A stretch of 64,000 nt of DNA from an uncultured Candidatus Saccharibacteria bacterium (GCA_964591715.1 CAZQDR010000003.1:269-64268); one strand, 5' to 3'; positions 14,702 to 61,836 are shown, counted from the stretch's first letter. Numbers and translations are program-made. The notes: generated from the letters alone by a model not told the origin.

Positions 14702-15277
14702 ATGGCGTCAATTGATTATAGTGAGGTAAAAGAGCGCCGCCACATCGTTTTGGATGGCGAACCGTACGAAGTTTTATCAAGCCACGTCTTTCGCAAACAA
14801 CAGCGCAAGCCGGTTAATGCGACGAAATTAAAAAACCTGATCACCGGCAAAGTGCGCGAGCACTCGTTCCACGTTAGCGATCAGGTCGAAGTGGCCGAAC
14901 TGAACGAGAAAGAAGTAATTTATTTGTATAATCACCGCGGTGAGTTTTGGTTTTGTGATGCCAGCAACAAGTCTAATCGCTTTGAACTGCCCGACAAGCT
15001 GGTTGGCGAACAAATGAAGTTCACCAAACCCAACACCACGATCTCCCTGCTCTCCTTTGGCGACCTGCCGATTGGCGTTAAAACGCCCGTGAAGGTGGAG
15101 TTGCGGGTAAAAGAGGCCGCGCCAGCCGTTAAGGGCAACACCGTCCAAGGTGGTACCAAACGGGTCATCCTAGAGACCGGCGCCGAGATGGACGTCCCAA
15201 TGTTCATTAACGAAGGTGATGTTTTGGTCATCAATACCAACACCGGCGAGTACGTTGAACGCTTAGGTAAGAAGTAA
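14702..15277 (+). CDS. efp: Elongation factor P
   Basis: EF-P length and KOW/OB pattern (TKLKNLITGK, VPMFINEGDVLVINT). The modification loop is atypical; see findings. Confidence 0.85.
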   Translation: MASIDYSEVKERRHIVLDGEPYEVLSSHVFRKQQRKPVNATKLKNLITGKVREHSFHVSDQVEVAELNEKEVIYLYNHRGEFWFCDASNKSNRFELPDKLVGEQMKFTKPNTTISLLSFGDLPIGVKTPVKVELRVKEAAPAVKGNTVQGGTKRVILETGAEMDVPMFINEGDVLVINTNTGEYVERLGKK

Positions 15278-15289
15278 ACCTCTCTCACT

Positions 15290-15337
15290 AAAAAACCGCC
15301 CCGTTAAATCTGAACAAATTTAACGGGGCGGTTTTTT
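15290..15337. terminator. Bidirectional intrinsic terminator between efp and rpsR
   Basis: AACCGCCCCGTTAAAT...ATTTAACGGGGCGGTT long stem flanked by A6 and T6. Confidence 0.8.
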
Positions 15338-15344
15338 AGTTGAC

Positions 15345-15545
15345 TTAGCGTGAGATGAACGGCAAGAGTGCCAAATGACGAGCGCGTTTTACTGCCTCGG
15401 TCAGCTTGCGCTGGTGGTTAGAGCAGTTGTTTGAGCGTTTGTGATTAACAATTTTGGCGTACGGATCAATAAACTTCTTTAAAAGTTCAGTGTCCTTGTA
15501 ATCAATATACTTAATATTATTCGTGCAAAAGTGACAGTATTTCAT
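15345..15545 (-). CDS. rpsR: 30S ribosomal protein S18
   Basis: IDYKDTELLKKFI...QRKLTEAVKRARHLALLPF. Confidence 0.85.
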   Translation of the reverse strand: MKYCHFCTNNIKYIDYKDTELLKKFIDPYAKIVNHKRSNNCSNHQRKLTEAVKRARHLALLPFISR

Positions 15546-20828: not shown

Positions 20829-22112
20829 CTATAGTCGCAGAAGCGACTCAAACCTCGCCCCCTCCCGCTCAGGGCCAATCAAAGCCAGATTAAGTGCCTC
20901 GGTTTTGAAGATTCGGCGAGCCACTGCCTTGATCTCCTTGGCAGTCACCGCCCGAATTTTTTTGGCGATCAGCTCTGGGGATTCTAGTTTACCCTTTATA
21001 ATTTCCTCGGTGCCAAAAAAGCCGGCTAAACTTGAGGAGCGCTCGAGCCCCAAAAACAGGGAGCCGATCATCGACTCTTTGACCCGCTCCAGTTCAACGG
21101 CTGGGACCAAAGTCTCGGTTAGCTTGCGGCATTCAGCTAAAATAGCGGTAATAATTTCGTCAACCCGCTTGGTGTCTGAACCCACCGCAATCTCTAAAAC
21201 CCCGTGATCGGTATAGGTATCATTTTCGGCTCGGACATAATAGGCGGCGCCCAATTCCTCTCTAATTTTGAGAAACAAGCGCGAGCTCATTCCCCCACCA
21301 AGCACTGCCGCTAAAACATCGGCCGCGTCCGACTCGGGGGCGGTTGCGGAGAAGGTTCGCACCCCTAAAATCAAATGGGTTTGATCAGATTTTTTGTATT
21401 CTACTCGGTACTCAGGCTTGGTCTGCTTTTCGATCACGGCTGGTTTAGATAAATTAGGCCCAGACGGGATGGTCTTAAACTGCTTGGTGATCTTTTTAAT
21501 CATCGCCGCTTCGTTAAACTTACCCGAGACCACCACCACGGTGGCAGGAGCAACATAGTGGTTAGCCTGGTAACGCAAAAAATCCGCTCGAGTAAAACTT
21601 TTGACAGTCTCCTTGGTGCCCAAAATTGATCGCCCTGCTGGCTGATCACCGTAAAGTAGCGCGAGGAAAAGTTGGGCCACTCGATCGCGTGGCATATCCT
21701 CATACATATTTATTTCTTCCACGATCACCCCAGATTCCTTTTTTATTTCCACTTCGGGAAAAGTGGAGTTCAAATACATGTCGGCAATAATATCTAGCGC
21801 CCGATCCACCAGCTTGGGCTGAACCGTGGCGTAGTAGCCAGTGTACTCCTGCGAGGTAAAGGCATTGTAATTGGCACCTAAACCATCAAGCTCGGTCGAA
21901 ATGTCGGCCGCCCGGGGTCGGCGTTTGGTCCCTTTAAAAAACATATGCTCTAAAAAGTGCGACAAGCCGCCCTCGGCCTTGGACTCGTACTTGGAACCAG
22001 TCTCGGCTAAAACTAGAACATTAGTGGCCAGCGCCTCTGGCCGGGGAATCGTAATAATACGCAAGCCATTCGGCAACACCCTTTTATTAAAATTGGTCTT
22101 AGATTTTGGCAT
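20829..22112 (-). CDS. M16 (pitrilysin) family zinc peptidase
   Basis: Inverted zinc motif HFLEHMFFKGT. Confidence 0.8.
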   Translation of the reverse strand: MPKSKTNFNKRVLPNGLRIITIPRPEALATNVLVLAETGSKYESKAEGGLSHFLEHMFFKGTKRRPRAADISTELDGLGANYNAFTSQEYTGYYATVQPKLVDRALDIIADMYLNSTFPEVEIKKESGVIVEEINMYEDMPRDRVAQLFLALLYGDQPAGRSILGTKETVKSFTRADFLRYQANHYVAPATVVVVSGKFNEAAMIKKITKQFKTIPSGPNLSKPAVIEKQTKPEYRVEYKKSDQTHLILGVRTFSATAPESDAADVLAAVLGGGMSSRLFLKIREELGAAYYVRAENDTYTDHGVLEIAVGSDTKRVDEIITAILAECRKLTETLVPAVELERVKESMIGSLFLGLERSSSLAGFFGTEEIIKGKLESPELIAKKIRAVTAKEIKAVARRIFKTEALNLALIGPEREGARFESLLRL

Positions 22113-22146
22113 GCGCCTAGACTACCATACTTATTAAATTTTAGAC

Positions 22147-22410
22147 AAAAAAAATAGCCCCGTCATTCTTCTGAAGAATGTGTGGTCGGAGCTGGTGTCG
22201 CGCAACATGGTTGCGAAGAAGGTCTTAGTGCCTGTTGGCTAGCCCTCATTTAACGTATCTGCGTCGTGGCCTGCGGTGGTGATACGTGACTCTTACGTAA
22301 CCGCAGGGGTACTACTACAAACCCTTATTTACGCCTCTGCCGTCTAGGACCACTGGGCTTTGGCGGGTCTGCCAGCGCCAGCACTTGATGTGCTTCGGCT
22401 GGACATGTCT
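22147..22410 (-). ncRNA. Unclassified structured RNA (~260 nt) with its own promoter and terminator
   Basis: The 406-bp gap has no ORF. At least four strong hairpins lie at 22201-22215, 22271-22308, 22306-22325 and 22370-22400. A terminal long-stem hairpin at 22156-22193 is followed by U8. Confidence 0.5.
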
Positions 22411-22416
22411 GATGGC

Positions 22417-22444
22417 AGTATAGCATAGCCACAATTCTTGTCAA
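22417..22444 (-). promoter_or_regulatory. Sigma70-type promoter TTGACA-16-TATACT for the structured RNA
   Basis: -35 at 22439-22444 and -10 at 22417-22422. Confidence 0.55.
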
Positions 22445-22475
22445 GTATTTTCAGGATTGTTAATGACGACACAAG

Positions 22476-22501
22476 AAAAACGGCTCTGCTGGGCCGTTTT
22501 T
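22476..22501 (-). terminator. Intrinsic terminator after glyQS
   Basis: CGGCTC-TGCT-GGGCCG hairpin flanked by A5 and T5. Confidence 0.65.
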
Positions 22502-22518
22502 GGAAGGGTGATTTTTAA

Positions 22519-23832
22519 TTAGGCTAGCTTAGCCGCTAGTTCAGAGATTTTGACCCGGGTTTGCTCACCAGTATCGCGATCGCGGAGCGTGACCGTGTTT
22601 AAGAGGTCAGGGTTTTCACCGAGAGTATCGAAGTCGATGGTCACGCAGTAAGGCGTCCCAATCTCATCCTGGCGGCGATAGCGCTTACCAATATTGCCAT
22701 TATCATCAAAAATAGCTACTAGCGAAGAGCTTTCAGCTTTTAGCTTTAAATACACCTCGCGGGCTTTAGCCACCAACTCCGGTTTGTTTTTTAAGAGCGG
22801 GAAGACGGCCACTTTAATAGGAGCAATATTTTTACTTAATTTAAGATAGACCCGCTTTTCGCCACCCAGTTCGTCCTCGCGATAGGCATCCACCAGTACC
22901 GCCAAGAAGGTTCGATCCACTCCGAGCGATGGCTCAATAACATGGGGCATAAAACGTTCACCGCTAGCCTCATCAAAGTAGGACAAATCAACCCCACTAT
23001 ACTCCTGGTGCTTCGACAAATCATAGTCGGTCCGATAAGCCAAACCATAGAGCTCTTTGCGACCAAAACGAAAATCAAATTCACAATCACTCGTTCGCTT
23101 GGAGTAATGCGCCCGCTCCCCGTCCTCAACTTCAAGTTCATGAACCGAGTCGCGATCCAAACCAATTAGATCGATCCACTGCCACATTAAGTTCCGCCAC
23201 AGTTCAAAATTATTCTGCCAATCAGCCTCGCGAGTAAAATATTCTACCTCCATCTGCTCCAGCTCCCGCACGCGGAAGATAAAATCCCGCGGCGTAATCT
23301 CGTTGCGGAAAGCTTTGCCGATTTGAGCGATACCGAAAGGTAATTTAGGATGAAACGAATCCACCACATTTTTAAAATTCACGAAAATTCCCTGCGCTGT
23401 TTCTGGTCGCAAGTAGGCGGTAGCCGCGGAATCATCCATCGCTCCCACCTTAGTCGAAAACATCATATTAAACTGACGGGCCTCGCCTAGTGCGCCGCCA
23501 CAGTCCGGACACTTATCACTCTCTAGTTGATCGGCGCGGAAGCGACGCTTGCACGTGGTACACTCCACCAATGGATCGGCAAACCCGGCCACGTGTCCCG
23601 AGGCCTCCCAAACTTTAGCGTTCATGAGCAGGGCCGCATCCAAGCCAAACATCTCCTCGCGGTCGGTCACAAAGAGCTTCCACCAGGCATTTTTAATATT
23701 ATTCTTTAGCGCGACGCCCAAAGGACCGTAATCCCAAGTACCGGCTAAACCACCATAAATTTCCGAGCCTTGATAGACAAAGCCGCGGCGCTTGGCTAGG
23801 CTCGAGATCTTCTCCATTAGTTCAGGGTTCAT
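22519..23832 (-). CDS. glyQS: Glycyl-tRNA synthetase (dimeric class II type)
   Basis: MEKISSLAKRRGFVYQGSEIYGGLAGTWDYGPLG, the FRNEITPR motif, and a C-terminal anticodon-binding domain. Confidence 0.9.
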   Translation of the reverse strand: MNPELMEKISSLAKRRGFVYQGSEIYGGLAGTWDYGPLGVALKNNIKNAWWKLFVTDREEMFGLDAALLMNAKVWEASGHVAGFADPLVECTTCKRRFRADQLESDKCPDCGGALGEARQFNMMFSTKVGAMDDSAATAYLRPETAQGIFVNFKNVVDSFHPKLPFGIAQIGKAFRNEITPRDFIFRVRELEQMEVEYFTREADWQNNFELWRNLMWQWIDLIGLDRDSVHELEVEDGERAHYSKRTSDCEFDFRFGRKELYGLAYRTDYDLSKHQEYSGVDLSYFDEASGERFMPHVIEPSLGVDRTFLAVLVDAYREDELGGEKRVYLKLSKNIAPIKVAVFPLLKNKPELVAKAREVYLKLKAESSSLVAIFDDNGNIGKRYRRQDEIGTPYCVTIDFDTLGENPDLLNTVTLRDRDTGEQTRVKISELAAKLA

Positions 23833-30012: not shown

Positions 30013-31611
30013 TCACATCTGGTCCGGAGTCTGTATCCCCAACAGCCCGAGGCCATTTTTGAGCACTTGGGCGACGGCCGCCGTCAGTGCCAAGCGATAG
30101 TTCTCGTTCTCACTGCCAATAATCCGATTTTGGGCATAGTAGGCGTTAAAAGCCGAGGCCAGCTCCAGCAAGTAAGTCACAATATAGTTTGGCGCCAATT
30201 CTTGGGCCGCAAATGCCGCCAGATCCGGGAAACGAATTAATAATTTCTCTACCGCTGTCGCGTCCTCCGCCACTAACTCGACTGCCAAATTCGGCGCCTT
30301 AGCAAGAATAGACTGCGCGCGCACGGCAGTGTACTGCAGGTAAGGACCGGAGTCGCCTAAAAAGGAGAGCGATTTTTCTAAATCAAAAATAATATCGCGA
30401 CCAGGCGCCTGTTTCAAAATCGAATATTTAATTGCGGCCACCGCAATCGGCTCAGTCACATCCTCCCGCGCCTTCATCGCCTCGGCTAATAAAAATTCCG
30501 CCGTAATGACATCGCCAGTCCGGGAAGACATTTTTCCGGTTGGCAAACGAAGCATCCCGTGAGCCACATGTTTAGTTTTAGCGGCCAAGTCAGGAAAAAC
30601 CAACGACATCGCCTTTAACAACACTTTAAAATAGGCTTGGATTTCGTTGCCGGTCACCACGATCGACTGATCATACGGGAACTCGTCAAATTTAATTTTA
30701 GCTAGCCCCAACTCCTTCGCTTCATAAGTCGGCAACCCGTCCGAGTTAATAAAAACTCGGGTATGTAAGCCCTCCTCTTCGGCTCCCTTAAAGACTACGG
30801 CGCCATCGCTCTTTTCAAACACTTTACCTAAGTTATCCTCCACCACCTGCTTACCAAACGGTCCCGCCGCACTCTCAAAGAAATAATAATCAAATTTAGT
30901 CCCCAGCTTCTCGTAAATGGTTTCGAAATATTCTAAACTGACCCGCCGACCCTCGTCATAAATTTTATTAATTGCCTCGTCGCTCTTGTCATAAATCTTT
31001 TTGTTGATTTCTCTGATCGCCGCCTCGTCACCCTTGGTGGCGCCGTAGGCGTAGGCCTCGCCGAGCGTTGCGGCCGAGAGTTGGGCGGGCTTAAGTTCAA
31101 GTAACCCCCAAACCGCCCTGGCGACGTGTAACCCGACATCACCCTGATAACACGCCCGTTTAACCTCCGCGCCACTAAAAGCCAAGAGGCGGGACAGTGA
31201 CTCGCCGATCACATTTGGCATCAGGTGACCAATGTGAAATTCTTTAAATGGATTAGGGTCGGTATACTCGACAATCACTTTTTGCCCGGCCAGCTTTTGA
31301 CCACGACCATAATTCTCCTTCTCGCTTAAAACTTTTTTAATTTCCGCTGCAAAAACGGAGGTGGCTAAATAAAAATTAATAAAACCTGGACCGGCCACCT
31401 CCACCTTGGCCAACCACTCGGGTTTATCAGCTAAAATTTTTTCCTTAATTTTCTCCGCCACGGCTTTGGGATTCTCTCCCGCAGTTTTAGCGGCAACCAT
31501 GGCGACGTTAGAAGCAAAATCTCCGTGCGCCAAATCAGCCGGATATTCGACGGAAAATTTAACGGGCGCCTCCAGCACCCCCTCAATTAGTTTTTTGACC
31601 ACCTCTTTCAT
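30013..31611 (-). CDS. argS: Arginyl-tRNA synthetase
   Basis: EYTDPNPFKEFHIGHL (HIGH region) and the typical class I Arg C-terminal DALR domain. The start was placed at the third ATG because the -10 element overlaps the first two. Confidence 0.9.
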   Translation of the reverse strand: MKEVVKKLIEGVLEAPVKFSVEYPADLAHGDFASNVAMVAAKTAGENPKAVAEKIKEKILADKPEWLAKVEVAGPGFINFYLATSVFAAEIKKVLSEKENYGRGQKLAGQKVIVEYTDPNPFKEFHIGHLMPNVIGESLSRLLAFSGAEVKRACYQGDVGLHVARAVWGLLELKPAQLSAATLGEAYAYGATKGDEAAIREINKKIYDKSDEAINKIYDEGRRVSLEYFETIYEKLGTKFDYYFFESAAGPFGKQVVEDNLGKVFEKSDGAVVFKGAEEEGLHTRVFINSDGLPTYEAKELGLAKIKFDEFPYDQSIVVTGNEIQAYFKVLLKAMSLVFPDLAAKTKHVAHGMLRLPTGKMSSRTGDVITAEFLLAEAMKAREDVTEPIAVAAIKYSILKQAPGRDIIFDLEKSLSFLGDSGPYLQYTAVRAQSILAKAPNLAVELVAEDATAVEKLLIRFPDLAAFAAQELAPNYIVTYLLELASAFNAYYAQNRIIGSENENYRLALTAAVAQVLKNGLGLLGIQTPDQM

Positions 31612-31618
31612 TGCCATC

Positions 31619-31654
31619 ATCCTAGCATTTTTCGGACAAGAAAAAAGCCCCGCG
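31619..31654 (-). repeat. Copy 2 of the terminator-tail/promoter cassette upstream of argS
   Basis: ATCCTAGCATTTTTCGGACAAGAAAAAAGCCCCGCG. Confidence 0.8.
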
Positions 31655-31686
31655 TTTCTCTGTCGTTAAACAGAAAAATGCGGGGC
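31641..31686 (-). terminator. Intrinsic terminator after the 31702-32292 gene
   Basis: GCCCCGC...GCGGGGC outer stem with a nested inner helix, followed by T6 on the minus strand. Confidence 0.7.
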
Positions 31687-31701
31687 ATGAGGCACGCCAA
31701 C

Positions 31702-32292
31702 TCAGCGGGAGAATACCCGACTGCCGTCGCGCCACTCACGCGGACCCTCGACCGCACGGGCGTTCACGCCCCAACCGGCCTTAAGCCAGTCCACACCGAC
31801 CAAGAGCAGAACTCCTTCAGCGTCGCGAACGTAAAAGATGTTCACGTAACCATTGTTAAGGAGCGCGCCACTCTCGCCTTTCGCCTGCCGACTGATCAGC
31901 TGAACAATGGCGGAAAGCGTGGTCTCCACCTTCTCCTCTCCACCCAACTCGGCGATGATTCGTAGATCGCGAGACTGCTTCCTGAGTCGGTGGGAGCGGA
32001 GCACAGTCTCCGGCTGCGGTTCCTCCACCTTGTTGCCGAACCAAGTCTTGAAGTTCTTACCAAGCCAGGCGATACCACTCTGGCCGACGACCAACTCCTG
32101 TTCGGCAACGAACTTGGCCGTGGTCGCGACGATGGTGATAGTAGTGAGGAAGTCGAGAATGCTGTCCACGATTTCCTCAATCACCACCTTTGCCTTTCCG
32201 GCGAGCAGGCTCTTGGCGTTCTCCTCACCAATAATGTTGATGAGCGCTTCCACCTGACCGAACGACCAACCGCTATACTTGTAACTAGCCAT
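31702..32292 (-). CDS. Hypothetical protein, paralog A of an unknown family
   Basis: Start re-picked at MASYKYSGW (ATG at 32292). The C-terminal ~130 aa align with the 32500-32994 product. Confidence 0.6.
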   Translation of the reverse strand: MASYKYSGWSFGQVEALINIIGEENAKSLLAGKAKVVIEEIVDSILDFLTTITIVATTAKFVAEQELVVGQSGIAWLGKNFKTWFGNKVEEPQPETVLRSHRLRKQSRDLRIIAELGGEEKVETTLSAIVQLISRQAKGESGALLNNGYVNIFYVRDAEGVLLLVGVDWLKAGWGVNARAVEGPREWRDGSRVFSR

Positions 32293-32388
32293 AGCACACA
32301 AACCTTTCCGGCTAAAAGCCGAGAAACTGCCTCTACCCGAGGTGGGGGCTGTATTCACTCGAATCCAGCGTTTCAAAGAACTAATATT

Positions 32389-32417
32389 AGTATACACCTA
32401 ATTACCCTATTTGTCAA
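32389..32417 (-). promoter_or_regulatory. Sigma70-type promoter TTGACA-17-TATACT for paralog A
   Basis: -35 at 32412-32417 and -10 at 32389-32394. A ~95-nt leader follows. Confidence 0.6.
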
Positions 32418-43996: not shown

Positions 43997-44029
43997 TAAA
44001 AAGGCCCGCCACTCAAATAGTAGCGGGCC
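43997..44029 (-). terminator. Intrinsic terminator after csrA
   Basis: GGCCCGC...GCGGGCC hairpin followed by TTTTTAATTT on the minus strand. Confidence 0.7.
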
Positions 44030-44049
44030 CACCTCCCCATTGGATCAAG

Positions 44050-44304
44050 TCACGCCTTCTTTGTGTTGGCGGCGGCTTTGTCTTTCGGGGCGCCGGCGAC
44101 ATTGGCAATGTCCTCCGGCTTGACGCTCGCGGCGGCGCGATTCTCGCGCTTGATGGCCTCGTACACCTCTTTGCGATGCACGGGGACTTCGCTTGGAGCA
44201 CTGATCCCGAGGCGAACTTTGTCGCCTCGAACATCAACAACCGTGATCTCGATGTCATCTCCGATCATGATTGTCTGATCTCGTTGGCGTGATAACACCA
44301 GCAT
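44050..44304 (-). CDS. csrA: Carbon storage regulator CsrA
   Basis: MLVLSRQRDQTIMIGDDIEITVVDVRGDKVRLGISAPSEVPVHRKEVYE. Confidence 0.88.
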   Translation of the reverse strand: MLVLSRQRDQTIMIGDDIEITVVDVRGDKVRLGISAPSEVPVHRKEVYEAIKRENRAAASVKPEDIANVAGAPKDKAAANTKKA

Positions 44305-60991: not shown

Positions 60992-61255
60992 CTATTTACG
61001 CTTAAGCTTATAGACCTTGAGCACTTCCCCGACAGCCTTATCGGGCTTGCCTTCTTTTATTTGTTTAACCACACAATGTGAGAGATGGTGCTCCATAAGC
61101 AGATCCTCCACATTCGACAAACCCTGCTTGGCGGCCGAGCTTTGGGTAATGACGTCAATGCAATAGGTCCCCTTCTCCACCATTTCCCGCAAGCCCCGGA
61201 CCTGACCTTCAATAATCTTTAGGCGACGAGCCAGCTTCTCCTTGTTTGTATTCAT
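60992..61255 (-). CDS. csoR: CsoR-family metal-sensing repressor
   Basis: LARRLKIIEGQVRGLREMVE...YCIDVITQ...HLSHCV (the C-H-C ligand pattern). Confidence 0.85.
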   Translation of the reverse strand: MNTNKEKLARRLKIIEGQVRGLREMVEKGTYCIDVITQSSAAKQGLSNVEDLLMEHHLSHCVVKQIKEGKPDKAVGEVLKVYKLKRK

Positions 61256-61266
61256 AGTTCTATCCT

Positions 61267-61284
61267 ATACCCCCCAGGGGGTAT
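61267..61284. promoter_or_regulatory. CsoR-type operator ATACCCCC-CA-GGGGGTAT overlapping the csoR-copA promoter
   Basis: Perfect 8-bp arms lie between TTGACG (61286-61291) and TAGGAT (61262-67). Confidence 0.7.
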
Positions 61285-61312
61285 CCGTCAAGTATAGATA
61301 TCCCCCTTACCG

Positions 61313-61354
61313 TCAAAACAAAAATGACCCCGCGAATAGTGTTCGCGGGGTCAT
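61313..61354 (-). terminator. Intrinsic terminator after the HIT gene
   Basis: ATGACCCCGCGAA-TAGTG-TTCGCGGGGTCAT hairpin followed by TTTTTGTTTTG on the minus strand. Confidence 0.75.
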
Positions 61355-61380
61355 GAAAACTGGCGCCTAGTGACAACGGG

Positions 61381-61836
61381 TCAGGCAATGGTTTTATCTA
61401 AAGTCAATTTAAGCTGTTTCGCCACCTCTTTAAGTTCCGCCTCTGGACTCGCCTCTCGGCTACCAGGACGATATAAAAATTGACGAGGTTCATATTCAAT
61501 AATTCCTGCGTCACCTTCCTTTCGTGGCAACAAGTGCAAATGAAAGTGCGGCACTGATTGTCCCGCCAATTTACCCTCATTCCAGGCAAAGTTGAAACCT
61601 TCAGCGCCAAACACTTTAGTCAGTGCCCCTTTAAGTGTCCCCATTAAATTAAAAATGGCTTGTCGTTCCGCTTCGGTCAACTCCGCAAAAGTAGCGACAC
61701 AGCGAGTCGGCACAATTAAAACGTGGCCAGGCACAATCGGGATATTGGTTGGGAAAGCGAAAGCTAATTCATTAGAAATAATCACCCGCTCTTTAATAGC
61801 TGGGATTTCACAAAACGCGCAGTAAATATCAGTCAT
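61381..61836 (-). CDS. HIT-family nucleotide hydrolase/transferase
   Basis: Histidine triad HFHLHLLPR and GHVLIVP. Confidence 0.85.
   Translation of the reverse strand: MTDIYCAFCEIPAIKERVIISNELAFAFPTNIPIVPGHVLIVPTRCVATFAELTEAERQAIFNLMGTLKGALTKVFGAEGFNFAWNEGKLAGQSVPHFHLHLLPRKEGDAGIIEYEPRQFLYRPGSREASPEAELKEVAKQLKLTLDKTIA

Follow-up and report, generated by a model that had tools for sequence, protein, structure and literature searches.

Trans-encoded small RNA (sRNA) genes lie in intergenic regions, are driven by a sigma-70 promoter, end at a Rho-independent terminator and are often strain-specific. The element described here, termed the orphan unit, lies on the minus strand in the gap between glyQS and an M16 peptidase gene, and resembles such genes in being intergenic and non-coding, in having a near-consensus promoter and a terminator with a U-tract, and in ending with a stable 3′ hairpin. 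The likeness of this predicted unit is one of architecture only; at ~260 nt it exceeds most sRNAs in length, and it comes without a recognised target, chaperone context or homologue. Leaders of the riboswitch, T-box and attenuator types share with it a promoter, a structured region and a terminator close before a gene start, but the orphan unit differs from them in that it has no aptamer match and no antiterminator, that the M16 promoter is independent of it, and that it is absent in relatives.

Patescibacteria also possess intron-containing tRNA genes that standard tools overlook (Nakagawa et al. 2026, PMC13011429), with a total length for tRNA and group I intron of ~270–330 nt (PMC13011429). 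The orphan unit comes from the same phylum, is of similar length, is invisible to Rfam and ARAGORN, and carries ...CUCCG-A-CCA near its 3′ end; however, it has no D-arm, T-arm, 5′ acceptor strand or group I core, and the intron mode of ARAGORN gave a negative result. Finally, variable accessory slots between housekeeping genes offer a parallel at the level of the locus, because the glyQS–M16 slot holds different small genes in each lineage, each with a promoter and a terminator, whereas the occupant in the genome of the window (the whole stretch of DNA analysed, 64 kb in length) is without an ORF. Compared with these systems, the orphan unit is best filed as a single-genome case of a familiar kind, the strain-specific intergenic sRNA-like transcription unit. 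Tentatively, we prefer to see in it a non-coding, sRNA-like unit that is peculiar to the strain, is transcribed independently and may occupy a fast-turnover accessory slot. The elements of the locus, in the order of transcription, are as follows.

22519–23832, minus strand: glyQS, encoding a class II glycyl-tRNA synthetase of 437 aa; upstream neighbour, 65–74% identity to Parcubacteria GlyRS
22471–22501, minus strand: glyQS terminator, AAAAACGGC-CCAGCAGA-GCCGUUUUU then CUUG; perfect 9-bp arms, −10.6 kcal/mol
22417–22444, minus strand: sigma-70-type promoter of the orphan unit, TTGACA-16-TATACT with an extended −10 TG; 11/12 consensus match
22194–22410, minus strand: predicted RNA body, a hairpin chain closed by a weak 4-bp helix; start at ~22410 from the −10 spacing
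22147–22193, minus strand: intrinsic terminator of the orphan unit, AGCUCCG..CAUUCUUC-AGA-GAAGAAUG.CGGGGCU, then A and U8; −13.6 kcal/mol
22119–22148, minus strand: M16 promoter, TTGTCT-18-TAGTCT with TGg; block conserved in relatives L081, L085, L086 and L099
20829–22112, minus strand: gene for an M16 (pitrilysin-family) peptidase; downstream neighbour, PF00675 and PF05193 on homologues

The gap between the two genes covers 22113–22518 (406 nt) and, in agreement with the first-pass annotation, contains no credible ORF and is non-coding. Upstream of it, the Pfam domains tRNA-synt_2b and HGTP_anticodon are found on an orthologue of the synthetase, and the GlyRS encoded in the window, which derives from a Parcubacteria/Paceibacteria (CPR) genome, is 65–74% identical to those of Parcubacteria metagenome-assembled genomes. 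Downstream, M16 belongs to an operon with an AI-2E-family transporter and metG, which encodes MetRS. The hairpin of the glyQS terminator (22501–22476) lies 5′ of the promoter of the orphan unit and is homologous to the sequence following glyQS in L085; because glyQS is terminated upstream of that promoter, the unit is more than a glyQS 3′ UTR. At the other end, the M16 promoter overlaps the U-tract of the orphan unit's terminator, and the M16 start lies 35 nt beyond the terminator and U8. Since the −10 element of the M16 promoter ends 6 nt before the ATG, the M16 mRNA is probably leaderless, so that this gene is apparently served by a conserved, leaderless promoter.

The promoter of the orphan unit is composed of TTGACA at 22444–22439, a 16-nt spacer and TATACT at 22422–22417, with the TG of the extended −10 at 22425–22424. 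Counting both strands of the 64-kb window (128 kb), only 4 sites match at 11/12 or better, and all 4 are intergenic and directed at downstream sequence; the promoter is more than a chance match. The terminator consists of a long, interrupted hairpin (22193–22156) and the U8 tract (22154–22147), and its 5′ strand stays unpaired in folds of successively longer prefixes until the hairpin forms. The near-consensus promoter, terminator and U8 reported earlier on the minus strand are therefore upheld. Their description as the unit's own signals needs qualification: they are present in the gap, but counterparts of the −35 side and of the terminator's 3′ half serve protein-gene cassettes in relatives. 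The usual mark of an sRNA gene, an intergenic promoter paired with an intrinsic terminator, is found at this locus with its −35 side and terminator 3′ half common to those cassettes.

The second trait of an sRNA gene, the lack of a translated ORF, also appears to be present as far as the sequence can tell. ORFs in the gap reach only 39–42 aa and start with TTG or GTG at positions 5′ of where transcription is predicted to begin; the ATG ORFs within the predicted transcript, of 20 aa and 28 aa, are both without a Shine-Dalgarno (SD) sequence. A six-frame translation searched against 5.8 billion predicted proteins gave no match at E≤10, so the orphan unit is not a recognisable pseudogene. It is improbable, on this evidence, that the transcript is an mRNA for a tiny protein, either the 20-aa MSSRSTSSAGAGRPAKAQWS, whose ATG at 22406 is ~4 nt from the predicted start and thus nearly leaderless, or the 28-aa MRASQQALRPSSQPCCATPAPTTHSSEE, which starts with an ATG at 22250 and ends within the terminator. 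Such an mRNA would be in keeping with the small proteins encoded by other cassettes of the slot; furthermore, leaderless translation is probably present in the organism, given that M16 appears leaderless, and the first ATG comes 10 nt past the −10. However, in a genuine leaderless gene the ATG would lie closer to the −10 than 10 nt, and neither ORF has an SD, compared with the strong SDs of the leadered cassette genes of relatives. The peptides, moreover, are of low complexity and unmatched among the 5.8 billion proteins, and more than 70% of the transcript would be left untranslated.

The predicted RNA body contains the following helices and one palindrome.

22372–22402, minus strand: hairpin H1, CCAGC/GCUGG plus AGCAC-AUCAA-GUGCU; −15.2 kcal/mol
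22324–22307, minus strand: hairpin GGGU-N10-ACCC, read from the sequence
22270–22307, minus strand: hairpin H3 of 13 bp, CCUGCGGU-UACGU-AAGAGUC-ACGUA-UCACC-ACCGCAGG; −16.9 kcal/mol
22237–22244, minus strand: self-complementary palindrome GGCUAGCC, by direct reading
22201–22215, minus strand: hairpin CGCAAC-CAU-GUUGCG with a 3-nt loop; −6.1 kcal/mol

All of the hairpins listed in the first-pass annotation were recovered, although with small slips in their coordinates (H1 runs from 22402 to 22372 rather than over 22370–22400) and with a loop of 3 nt (CAU), not 4, in the hairpin at 22201–22215; the 8-nt self-complementary segment is also present, at 22244–22237. The full unit folds with a minimum free energy (MFE) of −88 kcal/mol (z −2.9), and 2 of 200 shuffled sequences fold equally well. 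For the body without the terminator the MFE is −74.4 kcal/mol (z −2.7), and the MFE structure coincides with the centroid. The opposite strand gives z −0.9, compared with −2.9 and −2.7 on the RNA strand, which makes the fold signal strand-specific. A z at least as low is nevertheless reached by 5.9% of 320 windows of the same size sampled across the genome, and neither GNRA or UNCG tetraloops nor any other sign of tertiary folding appear in the predicted structure. "Highly structured", the term used earlier, is therefore an overstatement, and the modelled fold of the orphan unit is unusual only to a moderate degree.

No known RNA family accounts for these structures. The 4227 models of Rfam 15 gave no match in the whole window at the gathering threshold and none at E≤10 in 22050–22560, on both strands, so that the scan proposed at the outset returned no known family even at the permissive threshold; the same tool recovered the tRNA of locus L099 as a positive control, and Rfam gave no match on the loci of 15 relatives. 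ARAGORN found neither a tRNA nor a tmRNA in the orphan unit at its default setting, and nothing with introns allowed at the default or the 80% threshold. At 60–70% only nonsensical calls appeared, among them a tmRNA called at 70% on the other strand, with a run of A for its "5′ tRNA domain". The earlier failure to match the region to RNase P RNA, tmRNA, SRP RNA, 6S RNA, a T-box or a riboswitch is borne out by the controlled Rfam search and by ARAGORN, and by these comparisons the orphan unit is a member of no described RNA family.

Several individual identities were considered and rejected. RNase P RNA was assessed by its P4 helix formed from CR-I and CR-V, a length of at least 300 nt, and its status as a single essential gene kept among close relatives; the orphan unit has no Rfam match, lacks the CR-I motif (GGAAAGUCC) and is missing at the locus of a relative whose M16 is 96% identical. 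A tmRNA, standard or permuted, would combine a tag reading frame with a tRNA-like domain (5′ GGGG acceptor strand, T-arm and 3′ acceptor-ACCA); it was rejected because there is no T-arm and because the pairing of GGGGCU with CAGCUCC directly abuts U8 and leaves no space for a coding piece. 6S RNA is a long rod with a central bubble, and SRP RNA is recognised by conserved internal loops and a GNRA-capped domain IV helix; the fold predicted here is a chain of several hairpins closed by 4 bp, has no GNRA loop and gives no Rfam match. Periodic direct repeats were not found, which excludes guide arrays of the CRISPR or TIGR type; such arrays lie next to an effector gene, and the genes near the orphan unit encode GlyRS, M16, the transporter and MetRS.

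It is extremely improbable that the unit is a highly divergent member of a known family, whether RNase P, tmRNA, SRP or 6S RNA or an intron-containing tRNA gene. The idea draws on Patescibacterial tRNA genes whose divergent group I introns evade both RF00028 and ARAGORN (PMC13011429), on the segment CAGCUCCG-A-CCA at 22194–22183, which resembles a tRNA 3′ end, and on a superficial likeness of H3 (CUGCGG/CCGCAG) to the P4 helix of group I introns. The sole partner of the tRNA-like segment, however, is the downstream CGGGGCU that abuts U8, so this pairing is the terminator stem, and the unit lacks a T-arm, a D-arm and an upstream partner for the acceptor strand. Rfam was empty at E≤10 although its control worked, and ARAGORN with introns was empty down to 80%. 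A tRNA with a group I intron, which calls for two exon halves (D-arm, T-arm, paired acceptor stem) around a P3–P9 core, was rejected on the same ground (ARAGORN -i negative at 100% and 80%), together with the lack of an RF00028 match and of a T-loop or D-loop by inspection, and a group I intron as such was rejected because RF00028 does not match and P3, P7 and P8 pairings could not be assembled by hand around the P4-like H3. As for a tRNA remnant, CAGCUCCGACCA looks like the 3′ end of the tRNA-Pro of L099, but the two align no better than chance (25/300 shuffles).

It is also very unlikely that the unit is a cis-regulatory leader, that is, a riboswitch or attenuator controlling the operon of M16, the AI-2E-family transporter and metG. 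The layout, with a promoter, a structured region of ~220 nt, a terminator with U8 and a gene start 35 nt further on, is like that of a riboswitch or T-box, and the operon does hold an aminoacyl-tRNA synthetase. No aptamer or T-box match was obtained at E≤10, however, and neither prefix folds nor a constrained fold revealed an antiterminator for the orphan unit: blocking the terminator hairpin costs 12.5 kcal/mol and no replacement helix forms. The terminator is, as modelled, constitutive. M16, furthermore, has its separate conserved leaderless promoter over the U-tract, a read-through transcript would have no SD for its translation, and relatives do without the element. A riboswitch or attenuator was rejected on the strength of the missing exclusive terminator/antiterminator pair and of this separate M16 promoter.

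Comparison with relatives shows that the interval itself is variable. The set examined comprised 80 glyQS loci from GTDB species representatives, together with M16 homologues and their contigs, and M16 follows glyQS in 36 of the 80. Among these 36 syntenic loci the gap is ≤50 nt, or the genes overlap, in 17, whereas it measures 113–137 nt in 2, 228–707 nt in 11 and ≥853 nt in 6. The gaps of 228–707 nt mostly hold unrelated ORFs of 43–186 aa, most of them with an ATG and an SD, and in a further relative, L099, the slot is occupied by a tRNA-Pro. In the nearest relative (L081–L084), which has an M16 96% identical to that of the window, the slot contains a gene for a 235-aa protein without a Pfam domain, equipped with a TTGACA-17-TGgTATATC promoter, a strong SD and a terminator. 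L085, with 69% M16 identity, has a homologous gene of 251 aa, and relatives with 62–67% M16 identity have gaps of ~10–78 nt or overlapping genes. No defence or Pfam annotation was found for the cassette proteins of relatives.

Alignment with the two closest cassettes delimits the part that is peculiar to the window. Nucleotide homology with L081 ends near 22547 and restarts at 22161 in the 3′ half of the terminator, and the left flank can be aligned with L085 through the glyQS terminator as far as the −35 TTGAC. The −35 side of the orphan unit thus aligns with the promoter of the L085 cassette, and the 3′ half of its terminator and the U-tract align with the terminator of the L081 cassette; in those relatives the aligned signals serve the 251-aa and 235-aa protein genes. 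The interior, ~22439–22162, has no match in L081 or L085 on either strand, and a decayed copy of the 235/251-aa gene was rejected because tblastn and Smith-Waterman scores are at the level of shuffled sequences. Because the interior is unmatched while the outer signals are shared, the interior is likely to be a recent replacement in a slot with older expression signals. The halves of the terminator read AGCUCCG/CGGGGCU in the window, as against CCCCCG/CGGGGG for L081, the 3′ half being the shared one; the 3′ half and U-tract are, judged from these alignments, ancestral to the slot. That each cassette has brought a matching 5′ half suggests that termination before M16 is held by selection. The picture of the glyQS–M16 junction as a fast-evolving cassette site before a conserved, apparently leaderless M16 promoter is more solid than the RNA itself.

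The same comparisons bear on the most serious rival explanation, which we regard as possible but rather unlikely, namely that the segment is a non-functional remnant of cassette turnover, with filler as its interior, a functionless transcript and a terminator that acts only as an insulator of M16. By this route a protein gene like those of L081 and L085 would formerly have filled the slot, until recombination or deletion exchanged its interior for unrelated sequence. The element is missing from every relative compared, including the one with 96% M16 identity, and the −35 side and terminator 3′ half have counterparts in protein-gene cassettes, so these signals, being partly inherited, may merely have outlasted the gene. 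The fold z lies in the top ~6% of the background and is not exceptional, and the genome of the window occurs only once in the protein collection, where nothing indicates that the element persists. Against this explanation, the interior supplies a near-consensus extended −10 at the correct spacing and a fitting 5′ terminator half, both of which are unlikely in random filler. In addition, gaps of ≤50 nt are frequent among the relatives of this compact genome (17/36), so unused DNA tends to go; the former gene left no trace; and the fold signal is confined to one strand.

The failure to find the RNA elsewhere extends over a broad range of databases. No homologue was detected by nhmmer and blastn in 100 related loci (806 kb) or by BLAST in phage and plasmid databases, and there is no second copy within the window. 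Six seeds of 18–26 nt in IMG/VR viral contigs, and two in JGI metagenomes, gave only chance matches of 17–21 nt, in searches that require exact 17–20-mers and that homologues below ~90% identity would escape. A chimeric query of the GlyRS C-terminus and the M16 N-terminus, for partial genes on short contigs, returned only the GlyRS of the window, which forms a singleton cluster in the protein collection; the nearest relative available is the one with 96% M16 identity. Conservation in relatives, the lack of which had been named in advance as telling against the first-pass annotation, is indeed absent, even in that closest relative. With no homologue among the databases searched there is no conservation and no covariation, and function at the RNA level is unsupported. 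Absent from relatives, the element can count as a candidate for a strain-specific transcript but not as an established, conserved structured RNA.

If the orphan unit is an independently transcribed sRNA-like unit, as we prefer to think, RNA polymerase would start near 22410 and stop in U8 at 22154–22147, giving a product of ~255–265 nt that would fold as a row of hairpins with a stable hairpin at its 3′ end. Should this RNA be functional, it would probably act in trans through exposed single-stranded segments, candidates for contact being the J-region UAAAUAAG, the AAGAGUC loop of H3 and the palindrome GGCUAGCC. The terminator may also shield the overlapping M16 promoter from read-through. The unit would have arisen recently, by replacement of the interior of a cassette.

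To our knowledge, almost no sRNA biology has been described in Parcubacteria, the genomes of which are tiny. If real and expressed, the orphan unit would be among the very few candidate regulatory RNAs described in that group, and the slot would be one where protein and RNA genes can replace each other behind shared expression signals. In practical terms the unit, a single-genome orphan, serves as a target for transcriptomics of its lineage.

The boundaries of the unmatched segment are marked by two copies of a short palindromic motif.

22434–22448, no strand: motif ATTCTTNNNAAGAAT, copy 1, with 1 mismatch; over the −35
22165–22179, no strand: motif ATTCTTNNNAAGAAT, copy 2, exact; at the tip of the terminator hairpin

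A bolder account, which we consider doubtful, makes the orphan unit a new functional structured RNA gene of a CPR bacterium, gained as an accessory cassette in place of a protein gene whose signals it reuses, with the palindromic motif as a regulatory or recombination site for RNA cassettes of this kind. Alternatively, the 15-nt motif might mark both ends of a MITE-like or recombination-delivered element or cassette; this we hold to be highly improbable, because the window holds a single copy of such an element and 100 other loci hold none, a target-site duplication could not be seen, and no recombinase or transposase gene lies nearby. A gapped alignment of the two ends, moreover, is not significant (p ~0.03), and palindromy is built into both TTGACAA and a hairpin tip. 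What speaks for a delivered element is the distribution of the motif: with 1 mismatch allowed, ATTCTTNNNAAGAAT occurs only twice in the 64-kb window, at the two edges of the segment without counterpart in relatives, and a degenerate form of it occurs once in the 806 kb of relatives' loci.

The junction between glyQS and the M16 peptidase gene, in which the ~260-nt unit lies, is a variable accessory slot among the related loci compared (L001-L100). The gap is 50 nt or shorter in 17 of the 36 syntenic glyQS-M16 loci, and elsewhere the slot is occupied by unrelated small ORFs, by a tRNA-Pro(CGG) (L099) or by an orphan protein of 235 or 251 amino acids, for which searches of Pfam and PADLOC gave no match. 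Examples of the slot are L081 2035-3000, L085 1251-3000 and L099 1-213, and the orphan gene lies at:
L081 2162-2869
L085 1425-2180

The left flank in the window is closer to that of the distant relative L085 (69% M16 identity) than to that of the close relative L081 (96%), and the slot is therefore a mosaic. Because 100 consecutive N, from a scaffold gap or from masking, fill ~2790-2890 in L085, within the 820-nt region from the 251-aa gene to M16, the slot sequence of this relative is known only in part.

The edges of the unique segment both carry a 15-nt palindromic motif, ATTCTTNNNAAGAAT, which has just two sites in the 64 kb:
22434-22448, overlapping the -35 element
22165-22179, forming the tip of the terminator

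Within the terminator, CAGCUCCG-A-CCA (22183-22194), a loop and CGGGGCU (22156-22162) resemble the acceptor stem of a circularly permuted tRNA or tmRNA, down to a G-U pair and an ACCA. This likeness at 22156-22194 is read as a coincidence, because U8 and the M16 promoter follow directly after CGGGGCU.

That promoter is a block conserved among relatives:
22119-22148, minus strand, promoter-like TTGTCT-18-TGgTAGTCT

Its counterparts are found at 2960-3000 in L081 and directly 5′ of M16 in L085, L086 and L099. Because the M16 ATG lies 6 nt past the end of the -10 element and is not preceded by an SD sequence, the arrangement suggests that the M16 mRNA is leaderless and that this trait is conserved throughout this Parcubacteria clade.

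No tRNA, tmRNA or other Rfam family was found in the 64 kb. Four 266-nt windows have folding z-scores of -4.6 to -6.1, more extreme than that of the ~260-nt unit:
15201-15466, at the ORF-free gap 15278-15548/16001
31601-31866
44001-44266
61201-61466

All four fall in or beside gaps without an ORF, gave no Rfam match, and may represent leaders, terminators or further unclassified RNAs. A second near-consensus promoter is also present:
32417-32389, minus strand, TTGACA-17-TATACT with TG

In the ~90 nt 3′ of it lies a GC-rich, apparently structured leader ahead of the gene at 31702-32397. The minus strand carries nearly all genes of the window, and a negative GC skew extends along the window's entire length.
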